In this document: positions 13,280 to 16,221 of the stretch, piece by piece | Layout: each line of letters begins with the position of its first letter | How positions within the stretch are numbered: position 1 is the first letter of the stretch | Origin: Longimicrobiales bacterium | GTDB lineage: Bacteria > Gemmatimonadota > Gemmatimonadetes > Longimicrobiales > Gaopeijiaceae | NCBI GenBank assembly: GCA_963664435.2 | Contig: CAXXKM010000003.1 | Coordinates: 1,696,001-1,760,000 of the forward strand | DNA length: 64,000 bases | Reading direction: 5' to 3' | Notes under the pieces: model-generated | Databases searched by the model: none | What the model was told of the DNA's origin: nothing | The model's input: only the letters and a program-made list of their open reading frames with translations | Position numbers and translations under genes: made by a program

Positions 13280-14107
13280 TCAGTAGCGCCCGCGCGCGCG
13301 CTCCTTGCCCGGAAGGATCTCCAGGCAGGTGGTCCACCACCCGGTGCGAATGGTCGTGATGAACTCTTCACAGATGCCCTCTCCCGCCATCTCGCGGGCC
13401 AGCGCCTCGTGATCGTAGCGGACCGGAACGAAGTCGAAGGCGAGCCGGTCCCCTTCGGCCGATACCATAGCATACCAGACGCAGGTTCGCCCGTCGTTCG
13501 CCGGACGCCCCAGCGCCCCCGCGTTGACGTACCAGCCCCCGGGCGCGAACCGCCGGGCCCAGTGGATGCCCGTGTGTCCCCCGAGAATCACGTCGCAGCC
13601 GGCGTCCGTGGCGAGCCTCGCGAGGAAATGCGAGGGCGTGGTGGTCTCCCACAGGAACTCGTTGACCTGGCGCGGGCTGCCGTGGCACGCGAGCACCCGC
13701 AGAGTGCCCAGCCGAAAGCGGATGGCGGGGGGCAGCGCGGCCAGCCAGCGGCGATGCTCGGCGGACGTGTTGGCGAGCGCGTAATCGTACGCCAGCCGGG
13801 CGTAGTGGTTGTCGCGCGGGTCGGTGTACCCGCACCGGCAGTCGTCCAGCCCGCGGCCGATGGAGTCGTCGTAGTTGCCCTGCACCACCCGCACGCCTTC
13901 GCGTCGGAGGATGGGGAAAACCTTGTCCGGAGAGGGGCCGAAGCCTCCCAGGTCGCCCAGACAAAAAAGCGCCTCCGCGTCCCGGGCGCGCGCATCCTCG
14001 ACCGCGGCCGCCAGCGCCAGGTGGTTGGAGTAGACGCCGCCGAACACCGCGACGCGCTGGAAGCGCTCCGGCTCCGCGGGGGCGTTCACGTGCGCGGAGT
14101 CATCCAC
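13280..14107 (-). CDS. Calcineurin-like metallophosphoesterase family protein with divergent motifs
   Basis: LGDLGGFGP, QGNYD, CHGSP, GGHTG, VNAGALGRP; Cys motif DDCRCGY. Confidence 0.82.
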   Translation of the reverse strand: MDDSAHVNAPAEPERFQRVAVFGGVYSNHLALAAAVEDARARDAEALFCLGDLGGFGPSPDKVFPILRREGVRVVQGNYDDSIGRGLDDCRCGYTDPRDNHYARLAYDYALANTSAEHRRWLAALPPAIRFRLGTLRVLACHGSPRQVNEFLWETTTPSHFLARLATDAGCDVILGGHTGIHWARRFAPGGWYVNAGALGRPANDGRTCVWYAMVSAEGDRLAFDFVPVRYDHEALAREMAGEGICEEFITTIRTGWWTTCLEILPGKERARGRY

Positions 14108-14113
14108 GAGCAG

Positions 14114-15193
14114 CTAGTGTTGTGCCGCTAAAGCGGTGTTGGCACGGTTGACCTTAGCCAGGATGTCGCGAACGGTGGCGGTCCAGACGAAGGGTTTCGG
14201 GGCGCGGTTCCTGTGGTCGATGTAGGACGTGATCGCGTGGACGAGCTGGCCGACGCTGTGGACGGCGAGGCGTTTGAGCTGGCGCTGCGTGAGTTCGGAG
14301 AAGAAGCGCTCGACGAGATTGAGCCACGAGGACGAGGTGGGCACGAAGTGGAAGTGGACTCGGGGGTGCCGGTCCAGCCAGTCCTTCACTCGGGCATGCT
14401 TGTGGGTGGCGTAGTTGTCGAGGATGAAGTGCAGGTCGAGTTCCGGGTCGCATTGTTTTTCGACGGTGCGCAGGAAGCGGAGGAACTCCTGGTGCCGGTG
14501 ACGGGGCAGACACTGGTGGATGACCTCTCCGGTGGCGACGTCCAGCGCCGCGAACAGCGTCGTGGTCCCGTGGCGCTTGTAGTCGTGCGTCATGGTGCCC
14601 GCCCGTCCCTTCTTGAGCGGCAACCCCGGCTGGGTCCGGTCCAGGGCCTGGATCTGGCTCTTCTCGTCGAAGGAGAAGACGATCGCCCGCTCCGGCGGCG
14701 CCACGTAGAGCCCCACCACGTCGCGGAGCTTCTCGACGAAGCGGGGATCGGTGGAGAGCTTGAAGTAGCGCACCCTGTGGGGCTTCAGTCCGTGGGCGTT
14801 CCAGATCCGCCCCACCTGGCTGTGATGCAGCCCCATGCCCTCGGCCATCAGGCGGGTGCTCCAGTGCGTCCCCCGCGGCGGTTTCTCCTCGAGCGTGCGG
14901 CGCACGACCTCGGCCTCGACTTCGGGCGTGATCGTACTTCGCGGCCGACCGGGGCGGGACCGATCCTCAAGTCCCGCGAGCCCCTCTTCGTCGTACCGGT
15001 CCAGCCATCTTTGCACGGTCGGCAGCGAGACGCCGATCTCGCGGGCCAGCGTCCGGCCCGGCAAACCTCCGGCCGAACCCAGTATGATCCGGGCGCGCTC
15101 CACGCGCCGCTGCGGGGTCGTGCGGGCTCGAACCCATCCCTCGAGCTCCTTGCGGTCCCCGGGTCGCAATCGAATCCTTCGCAGAGCAGGCAT
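14114..15193 (-). CDS. IS630 transposase
   Basis: N-terminal HTH; DDE motifs FDEKSQIQAL, LDNYATHK, SSWLNLVERFF; THDYKRHGTTTLFAAL. Confidence 0.96.
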   Translation of the reverse strand: MPALRRIRLRPGDRKELEGWVRARTTPQRRVERARIILGSAGGLPGRTLAREIGVSLPTVQRWLDRYDEEGLAGLEDRSRPGRPRSTITPEVEAEVVRRTLEEKPPRGTHWSTRLMAEGMGLHHSQVGRIWNAHGLKPHRVRYFKLSTDPRFVEKLRDVVGLYVAPPERAIVFSFDEKSQIQALDRTQPGLPLKKGRAGTMTHDYKRHGTTTLFAALDVATGEVIHQCLPRHRHQEFLRFLRTVEKQCDPELDLHFILDNYATHKHARVKDWLDRHPRVHFHFVPTSSSWLNLVERFFSELTQRQLKRLAVHSVGQLVHAITSYIDHRNRAPKPFVWTATVRDILAKVNRANTALAAQH

Positions 15194-15250
15194 GCATGGA
15201 AGATAGCGGCTTCTCCATGCGTTAACCCTGCCACTTATGCGACACTACAC
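14117..15250 (-). mobile_element. IS630-family insertion sequence with TA target duplication
   Basis: TA at 14115-14116 and 15251-15252; imperfect terminal inverted repeats GTGTTGTGCCGCTAAAGCGG vs GTGTAGTGTCGCATAAGTGG; single transposase ORF. Confidence 0.93.
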
Positions 15251-16221
15251 TAGAAGTCGCTGGCCGCCGCCGTGTTGGCACAGATCGACCCGTTCAGGTA
15301 GCAGGTGTAGCAGGCCTGTTCGGACAGCGACGCAGGCCGCGCCACCGCTTCGCCGAGGGTGTCGCCCAGACGCGCGTCCGGATAGTCGAGCAGGATGGGA
15401 CAGACGTGGACCCCGGCCGCCGTGACCAGGCGCGCGCGCGTGCACAAGAGCTGATCGACATCGAAGCCGTGCAGCATCTCGTGCGTGACCCGCATCGACG
15501 GCGCGTACCCGCGGGTGCGCCGCGCTTCCTCGCCGATGAGCAGCGGGGGGATGATCTTCAGCCGGGGGCGGTCGTAGCCGATGCCCGCCAGGAGCTCGCG
15601 AAAGTCGCCCAGGATGCGTCCGGTCCCGGCGTCGGGCCAGCTCTGCATGGCGGTGATGATGGGCAGGAACCCCGCGCCCACCAGCCGCCGCACCCCCTCG
15701 ATGCAGCGCGCGAAGGTTCCCTCTCCGCGGATGGCGTCGTTCATCTCCGCGGTGACCCCGTCCAGGCTCACCCTCAGCTCCAGGGAATAGGGCGATCCGG
15801 CCGCCAGCCGGCCCAGCTCGTGCACCGTTCGCTCGGGCAGGAGGGTCGCGTTGGTCAGCACGGTGGCCGGACCCAGCTCCAGCGTATCCTCGAGAATGCC
15901 GCACATCTCGTGATTCATAAAGGGCTCGCCGCCGGTGAAGTAGTACTCCTTCACCCCCAGCGGGACGGACTCGGCGAGGGCCGCGGCGACCTGGCCGCGG
16001 GTCATGAACCAGAACGAATGGTTGTCCGGGCTGCACGAGATGAAGCAGTGCCGGCAGCGCAGGTTGCACACCGTGCCGCTCACCTGGAACCAAAGCTGGT
16101 CCAGGGCCCGCAGCGGCACCTGCGGAGGCGACTCGGCGACGCGCGGCAGAGCCGTCGGCCGACCTCGGCCAGGGCCGTTGGCGGCGGTGGCCGCGCCGGG
16201 AAGAATGTTCAGGTCTTTCAT
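15250..16221 (-). CDS. Radical SAM protein with Cys-rich C-terminus (ArsS-related)
   Basis: CNLRCRHC (CxxxCxxC), FTGGEP, LTNAT, RVSLDG; C-terminal LLC...VCP...CYTCYLNGSICAN; probable start ATG 16221 with GAGGAG upstream. Confidence 0.88.
   Translation of the reverse strand: MKDLNILPGAATAANGPGRGRPTALPRVAESPPQVPLRALDQLWFQVSGTVCNLRCRHCFISCSPDNHSFWFMTRGQVAAALAESVPLGVKEYYFTGGEPFMNHEMCGILEDTLELGPATVLTNATLLPERTVHELGRLAAGSPYSLELRVSLDGVTAEMNDAIRGEGTFARCIEGVRRLVGAGFLPIITAMQSWPDAGTGRILGDFRELLAGIGYDRPRLKIIPPLLIGEEARRTRGYAPSMRVTHEMLHGFDVDQLLCTRARLVTAAGVHVCPILLDYPDARLGDTLGEAVARPASLSEQACYTCYLNGSICANTAAASDF

Follow-up and report, generated by a model that had tools for sequence, protein, structure and literature searches.

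The DNA analysed here is a stretch of 64,000 nucleotides from a Longimicrobiales bacterium (assembly GCA_963664435.2, contig CAXXKM010000003.1, positions 1,696,001 to 1,760,000), referred to below as the window. Its minus strand, on which all features of the locus lie, carries a gene for a radical S-adenosylmethionine (SAM) protein and a gene for a protein with a metallophosphoesterase fold, separated by an insertion sequence. The radical SAM open reading frame (ORF, 15250-16221) encodes 323 amino acids of an unnamed ArsS-like family, with a CxxxCxxC motif formed by C52/56/59 and a five-cysteine C-terminal domain from C260 to C314 (15280..15444) that aligns cysteine for cysteine to the tail of ArsS. 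The metallophosphoesterase-fold ORF (13280-14107), called here the partner, encodes 275 amino acids and is related to Car1-type arsenate reductases. Between them lies an IS630 element of 1136 bases plus one CTAG (14114..15253), whose transposase ORF (14114-15193) matches NF033545 with 286 bits against a cut-off of 100. The two genes form a real and undescribed variant of the ArsS-type organoarsenic system.

The IS630 element is flanked by CTAG copies (14114-14117 and 15250-15253), and both ORFs beside it are intact. With the element removed, the TAG stop of the radical SAM gene is followed by a 6-bp spacer (14108..14113) and by the GTG start of the partner at 14107, as an earlier reading made from the letters alone (the sequence-only reading) had proposed. 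This arrangement is confirmed by the duplicated CTAG, by the public runs X13, X18 and X17 (three of the four in one set), in which 14113 is joined to 15250 with 1136 bases skipped and four letters fitting either side, and by the same 6-bp junction in the related locus L005. The empty site was seen in none of the four runs of a second set; two of these (X7 and X11) carry a different insert of 3832 bases at the same junction (window 14091-15250), so that more than one insertion has occurred at this site. The IS630 insertion is recent, because eight of the nine copies in the genome, which is 96% complete, are identical. A matching stretch is present in sponge metagenomes, and the closest related loci belong to Longimicrobiales or Gemmatimonadetes (here and below, taxa of loci are those of the sequence records). 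Coverage by the RNA run X20 is limited to short segments that differ at many positions, and it therefore does not demonstrate expression. A repeat search gave nothing above chance, and a scan detected neither promoter nor terminator.

The pairing on which the sequence-only reading relied recurs elsewhere. A genome scan with the partner gave at least 553 confirmed stretches, and the best 80 were used, so the set is skewed to close relatives. The radical SAM gene lies beside the partner in 73 of these 80 loci; the seven others comprise two contig ends and five Planctomycetota loci. Its stop falls within 300 bp of the partner match in 67/73, and a start codon lies no more than 20 bases from that stop in 50/73. 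The loci span Gemmatimonadota, Planctomycetota, KSB1, Calditrichaceae, Methylomirabilota and Acidobacteriota. Of 151 Gemmatimonadota genomes, 13 possess the close type of partner, and every one of these 13 also has the radical SAM gene.

Both proteins carry conserved cysteines. In the radical SAM enzyme, C260 (LLC), C274 (VCP), C304/C307 (CYTC) and C314 are kept in 73/73 related loci; in the partner, C90/C92 (CRCG) and C261 (TTCLE) are kept in 80/80. The cysteine motifs pointed out from the sequence are therefore beyond chance. When the enzyme was searched against NCBIfam, no model was over its cut-off, which leaves it outside the characterised families. The best match was the Rv1681 family NF049973 (91.9 bits, cut-off 380), restricted to the core (residues 49-214), and the ArsS model TIGR04167 gave 54.8 bits (54.6 in a second scan) against a cut-off of 300. 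Pfam matches were likewise confined to the core, with no match to DUF3641 at E 0.01. The enzyme is thus no member of the ArsS family itself. The ArsS-like character of the tail is borne out: when a profile of 32 family members was compared with one of 13 ArsS sequences, residues 48-314 were aligned (probability 98.7, E 4e-16, about 22% identity) and all five tail cysteines were matched. A SPASM/twitch peptide maturase was considered and rejected, with NF045574 at 59.7 bits against 625 and NF033640 at 43.8 against 170; the neighbourhoods, in which no precursor peptide gene was seen, were also unsupportive.

The best structure matches of the enzyme are the SPASM/twitch enzymes SkfB, BlsE, SuiB and anSME (TM-score by query 0.55-0.60); neither ArsS nor a structure of this family was among its PDB matches. 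Among 35 distant members C260, C274, C304 and C307 are invariant and C314 varies. Because of their SPASM/twitch-like spacing and these fold matches, the four invariant cysteines are more likely to be ligands of an auxiliary Fe-S cluster than of arsenic, so that the suggestion that the clustered tail thiols bind As(III) would be narrowed to C314, the putative reactive thiol of the enzyme. Selenocysteine had also been considered for the cysteine positions. No in-frame TGA was found at a conserved cysteine in the window or in the 80 close loci, and one relative with 26% identity (L131:7425-8339, genome G186) carries a TGA where C314 would be, with the next stop following four codons later. The G186 genome has SelA. 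The hairpin after this TGA was no better than shuffles (z -1.1), and a selenocysteine insertion sequence is thus not demonstrated; the L131 protein is a candidate new selenoprotein. Two other members were met on the way: a second radical SAM copy without partner among transposase-like ORFs (L115:7866-8837, genome G059), and a frameshifted distant member next to a sodium:solute symporter gene on a Marinobacter adhaerens plasmid (L125:8800-9900), which is missing from the gene table of that plasmid.

The partner has the fold that had been assigned to it, as indicated by PF12850 (45.2 bits) and by the structures 3rqz and 3qfm (E about 1e-15); no NCBIfam family matched it at E 0.01. Calcineurin-like phosphoesterases bind two metals through seven ligands in five motifs. 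In 80/80 partner copies the four ligands of the second site, D52, N78, H142 and H178, are kept, and three ligands of the other site are lost (G24/Y26 stand in place of DxH, and G180 in place of the last His), which, as the fold is understood, removes one of the two metals. Because of this loss the partner is probably no working phosphoesterase, and only the fold part of the earlier assignment stands. The window-type partner has gained a WWTTCLE tail with the invariant C261; eight partners of the distant clade also lack these metal ligands and have the third cysteine in a loop instead. Over 252 amino acids the partner is 30.6% identical to a Mucilaginibacter ars-operon protein encoded beside acr3, and its C90/C92 align, as counted by hand, to C74/C76 (CGC) of that protein rather than to Car1 itself. 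Other distant relatives (about 30% identity) are likewise encoded next to acr3 in ars operons; of 34 matches to canonical relatives in Gemmatimonadota, 21 are no more than 5 kb from arsM. According to PMC12124457, Car1 reduces As(V), and its Cys74 and Cys76 are essential.

A physical association of the two proteins was predicted. The complex of radical SAM enzyme and partner scored 0.92 in three runs, with 0.00 for the best of three controls; of 157 solved complexes 116 attain the score mark applied, as do 2 of 215 mismatched pairs, counts that are only a rough guide for our own alignments. The runs share at least 85% of contacts, and the predicted local distance difference test (pLDDT) value of the partner is at least 94. 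The predicted interface uses the family-specific 153-161 loop and 262-271 tail of the partner, and it includes enzyme residue 315, next to C314, and partner residues 262-263, next to C261. PDB searches found no similar complex. After the complex prediction, the interface residues were compared between copies with and without partner. Among 76 copies with a partner, 108 radical SAM positions are conserved at 85% or more; four of them (S143, Y145, L186 and R218) change in at least five of seven close copies without one. Y145, L186 and R218 belong to the 13 positions of the predicted interface, and S143 lies next to these. Partner-bearing enzymes with 62-75% identity keep on average 12.9 of the 13 residues, and six partner-less ones with 66-70% identity keep 7-10. 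Two enzymes with partners encoded elsewhere in the genome, the second G059 copy and that of G264, keep 13/13. That the interface residues change where the partner is missing supports the predicted complex.

Docking of this kind could also serve a partner that carries arsenic as a chaperone or activates the enzyme without catalysis of its own, the arsenic chemistry being unchanged. The three ligands lost in 80/80 copies would fit such a role, as would three invariant cysteines able to chelate As(III), the scaffold protein Vps29 among the lower-ranking fold matches, and the persistence of the enzyme, with all its cysteines intact, where the partner is lost. A carrier would hardly account for the invariance of D52, N78, H142, H178 and the Car1-type cysteine pair, or for the proximity of canonical relatives to arsM (21/34), and we consider this role quite unlikely.

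The neighbourhoods point to arsenic. The neighbour scan covered 81 of 127 same-strand ORFs from 31 distant loci, and the markers found were counted over all 80 loci: a flavoprotein (15 loci), ArsM (7), TIGR04283 (7), DUF547 (5), TIGR04282 (4), VTT (3), a MerA-like protein (3) and a MIP channel (1). The survey of neighbourhoods suggested by the sequence-only reading thus recovered arsM and the glycosyltransferases TIGR04282/TIGR04283 near the module, and in five loci ArsM lies between the radical SAM and partner genes. Six long proteins among 150 representatives were examined for fusions. The enzyme is joined in a single chain to an ArsM-type methyltransferase in P0138, P0207, P0216 and L069, in both orders, to TIGR04282 in P0258 and to the flavoprotein in L067; P0125 and P0129 carry flavoprotein motifs. 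Loci L133-L136, from three Planctomycetota genomes of 3-4.4 Mb, have the enzyme fused to or abutting ArsM with no partner gene nearby, and G208 has two enzyme copies.

The flavoprotein matched no NCBIfam family at E 1e-12. Its relatives (35-39% identity) lie between arsR and arsK on Ensifer and Rhizobium plasmids, an operon from which we take it to be ArsV-like. It is present in 12 of the 151 Gemmatimonadota genomes, 11 of which have the enzyme. ArsV is described, in bioRxiv 10.1101/2021.08.12.456183, as a flavin monooxygenase that oxidises methylarsenite, MA(III). On a Roseomonas plasmid, TIGR04282, DUF547, a 33% identical enzyme relative, PhnDEC and a 32% identical partner relative form one run. 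The most complete cluster, L109 (genome G038), contains in addition a gene resembling AhpD, spread over two ORFs, and a short ORF resembling PrdB (4619-5152 and 7634-8116); these genes might be split at TGA codons. In the genome of the window the corresponding set is dispersed, with DUF547-TIGR04283-TIGR04282 at C1:221-223 kb, VTT and MerA-like genes at C3:913-916 kb and the flavoprotein at C1:1558 kb.

The sequence-only reading had left the substrate open between arsenic, selenium and phosphorus compounds, and the ArsM fusions and these neighbours favour arsenic. A selenium, sulfur or phosphinate substrate would be in keeping with the phosphonate-type ABC genes in the Roseomonas cluster and with the gene content of the window genome, which has SelA, a TIGR03169-SelD fusion (C1:1271613-1273958) and tRNA-Sec and, as its only ars-type gene, an isolated ArsC-like gene. 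The selenium genes are unlinked to any part of the module, however, three separate components are nearest to named relatives in arsenic systems, and the ArsM fusions occur in both orders. A substrate other than arsenic is thus highly improbable, and the link of the module to arsenic is very probable. Overall, the sequence-only reading of an ArsS-paralogue system with an arsenic-type substrate is supported: no characterised family fits the enzyme, its tail cysteines are conserved and the gene pair recurs widely, so that none of the three refuting conditions named in that reading applies.

The distribution of the enzyme was compared with that of ArsS in 151 Gemmatimonadota genomes and, with a broader alignment, in 121 Planctomycetota genomes. 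In Gemmatimonadota the enzyme was found in 19 genomes and ArsS in 16 (15 over the cut-off), and none had both; TIGR04282, present in 57/151, was found in all 19 enzyme genomes and all 16 ArsS genomes. In Planctomycetota there were 13 enzyme genomes and 40 ArsS genomes, one having both, and TIGR04282, present in 58/121, was found in 13/13 and 38/40 of them, respectively (11/11 for the enzyme without G156 and G157, which came from the locus set). Combined, 32/32 enzyme genomes have TIGR04282 and 1/32 has ArsS. One of ten further genomes reached through loci also has ArsS, and the genomes that carry both enzymes are G264 and G159. Neither sample by itself shows a significant exclusion of ArsS over all genomes (p 0.22 and 0.058). 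The exclusion is strong only among TIGR04282-positive genomes, where enzyme and ArsS coincide in 0 Gemmatimonadota genomes against 5.3 expected, and in Planctomycetota ArsS is present in 1/13 genomes with the enzyme against 37/45 without it. The enzyme appears to stand in for ArsS.

Ten TIGR04282 regions with neither enzyme were inspected. Two contain arsM with a canonical partner, two a radical SAM/SPASM-ArsM fusion and one an Rv1681-like cluster. The fusion (825-832 amino acids; L105:3938-6415 in G132 and L106:8496-10994 in G015) adjoins TIGR04282, TIGR04283, VTT and MerA-like genes and represents yet another type of enzyme in the place of ArsS; about ten genomes contain ArsM matches in frames longer than 800 amino acids. 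In the Rv1681-like cluster (L121:7383-11964 in G109; see also L126) the radical SAM gene lies with PhnD-like and acyl-CoA dehydrogenase-like genes between TIGR04282 and TIGR04283, a hint that the Rv1681-like family, too, is part of the system.

Taken together, these features suggest a pathway from oxidised methylarsenic to an arsenosugar or arsenolipid. Two reports bear on it: PMC13598754 describes the adenosylation of dimethylarsenite, DMA(III), by ArsS to DDMAA, and PMC8552651 describes ArsM as acting on trivalent species only. Since ArsS needs DMA(III) and ArsM only trivalent species, a reductant for oxidised methylarsenic is needed. With its C90/C92 pair the partner would reduce a methylarsenical in the pentavalent state, dimethylarsinate being the most likely one, and the loss of one metal site could provide room for the methyl groups that replace arsenate oxygens. 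The trivalent product would pass to the radical SAM enzyme via C261 and C314, the enzyme would add the 5'-deoxyadenosyl radical to arsenic, as ArsS does, and the adenosyl-arsenical would go to the TIGR04283/TIGR04282 glycosyltransferases to yield an arsenosugar or arsenolipid. Methylarsenic would be scavenged in lineages without ArsM, including that of the window. As a whole, the scheme of complex formation, methylarsenic reduction, radical adenosylation and an arsenosugar or arsenolipid route has about an even chance of being right. Its boldest form, which we put forward tentatively and with more doubt than confidence, is that a phosphoesterase-derived one-metal methylarsenate reductase relays trivalent methylarsenic by cysteines to a second radical SAM family forming C-As bonds, and that bacteria without ArsM, sponge symbionts included, build arsenosugars from scavenged dimethylarsinate.

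The C-As bond could also be made with another group, such as 3-amino-3-carboxypropyl as in ArsL, or with As(III) or MA(III) as the substrate. The identity to ArsS is only about 22%, and G264 and G159 carry both enzymes, a redundancy if the two catalysed the same reaction. Moreover, the gene order radical SAM-ArsM-partner could mean adenosylation, re-reduction and methylation, comparable to the arsinothricin route as outlined in PMC8552651. On the other hand, the tail architecture and accessory genes are shared with ArsS, the two co-occur in just 1/32 genomes, and the CCxxC tail of ArsL is absent from the enzyme. Transfer of another group or use of another substrate is therefore unlikely.

Several points weigh against the proposed reduction and adenosylation pathway. 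The identity of the family to ArsS is low, and a sister relationship of the two is neither established nor rejected: one tree places the family and ArsS on one side of a branch with support of 62/83, and a first tree did not resolve their branching. The partner is not obligate, since 6 of the 19 enzyme-bearing Gemmatimonadota genomes, all of one genus, lack it, and in the distant clade, whose neighbours are mostly housekeeping genes, it is nearby in only 9/80 loci (6/41 of those over 6 kb). The seven close partner-less copies used in the interface comparison represent two lineages. Clusters with ArsM inside (L038, L042, L052, L054 and L067) keep the partner, which is thus no simple substitute for ArsM. 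The co-occurrence values are inflated by kinship, the 19 Gemmatimonadota enzyme genomes representing 7 genera; 22 of the 57 TIGR04282 genomes have neither enzyme nor ArsS, and the arsenosugar naming of TIGR04282/TIGR04283 is by association. The absence of arsM from the window, noted in the sequence-only reading, extends to the 96% complete genome, in which Acr3, ArsK, ArsH, MIP channel and PhnD matches are also lacking, so that the genome reveals no source of arsenic and no route for its uptake. More generally, 9 of the 13 genomes with both genes (two genera) have no ArsM match, compared with 30/151 overall.

This last figure would also suit a salvage role, in which arsenosugars or arsenolipids of a host are hydrolysed or reduced by the partner and undergo remodelling or cleavage by the radical SAM enzyme. 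Importer-type genes (PhnDEC in L123; porin-like and symporter-like genes in L014, L028 and L109) and the presence of the stretch in sponge metagenomes can be read in the same way. The fusions to ArsM and TIGR04282 point to synthesis instead, both metals ought to have been retained in a hydrolase, and the nine genomes without ArsM are of two genera; breakdown is accordingly very unlikely.

A literature search listed no paper whose title or opening of the abstract describes the family or the pairing; Cheng 2021, Shen 2024 and Xue 2019, or their supplements, may list homologues. ArsS and ArsL are the radical SAM enzymes reported in the literature found to make C-As bonds. If the reduction and adenosylation pathway is correct, the module would be a second route to arsenic-containing sugars, and if the family stands where ArsS stands, surveys based on arsS would miss producers: in our samples the enzyme and ArsS number 19 and 16 in Gemmatimonadota, and 13 and 40 in Planctomycetota. 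The partner is also a concrete candidate for a reductase of pentavalent methylarsenicals. Such a reductase is not known to have been identified in bacteria, a point that the literature search did not confirm.

Other genes of the window, all on the minus strand, were noted in passing. A FakA (DAK2)-DegV fusion gene (11408-13231) lies 48 bp downstream of the partner, and a FakA/DegV gene is adjacent in 25 of the 80 loci, all from closest relatives or Gemmatimonadota; the adjacency may reflect synteny, and a link to lipids is possible. The window also contains a ThyX gene interrupted by an intein (32085-34343), an ankyrin-repeat protein gene adjoining that of a 1604-amino-acid protein with Ig and leucine-rich repeats (22956-29562), a PIN-domain toxin-antitoxin pair (17735-18444) and a HigBA-like pair recognised by inspection only (59395-60006).

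Compared with known systems, the radical SAM enzyme resembles ArsS in its length, its CxxxCxxC motif and its five aligned tail cysteines, and its loci share with those of ArsS the companions ArsM, TIGR04282, TIGR04283, DUF547, VTT and the MerA-like flavoprotein, although the window genome itself has no ArsM. It differs in falling below the ArsS cut-off, in lacking a DUF3641 match, in what looks like a separate clade and in genomes that are often without ArsM; the phosphoesterase-fold partner and the ArsV-like flavoprotein are further differences, neither being found in the 1.5-kb flanks of 16 ArsS loci. The partner resembles Car1 of Rufibacter tibetensis, as characterised in PMC12124457, in its fold and, via the Mucilaginibacter relative, in its CxC pair. 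It differs from the Car1 type in G24/Y26, G180 and the WWTTCLE tail with C261, in its identity of about 30% to canonical members, and in a gene that adjoins radical SAM rather than arsR/arsC/acr3. Like ArsL of arsinothricin synthesis, the enzyme is a radical SAM protein with C-terminal cysteines that is paired with ArsM; no ArsL model was among the 25 NCBIfam matches listed. According to bioRxiv 10.64898/2026.04.29.721666, ArsL binds arsenic through a CCxxC tail and transfers an aminocarboxypropyl group. The Rv1681 family (NF049973) gives the best NCBIfam match and likewise has a relative between TIGR04282 and TIGR04283 (L121), whereas the Mycolicibacterium member examined lacks the five-cysteine tail. 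Finally, the SPASM/twitch enzymes give the best structure matches and share the C-x13-C spacing in the first half of the tail, but the tail of the enzyme ends in CxxC-x6-C, and no SPASM/twitch model is over its cut-off.

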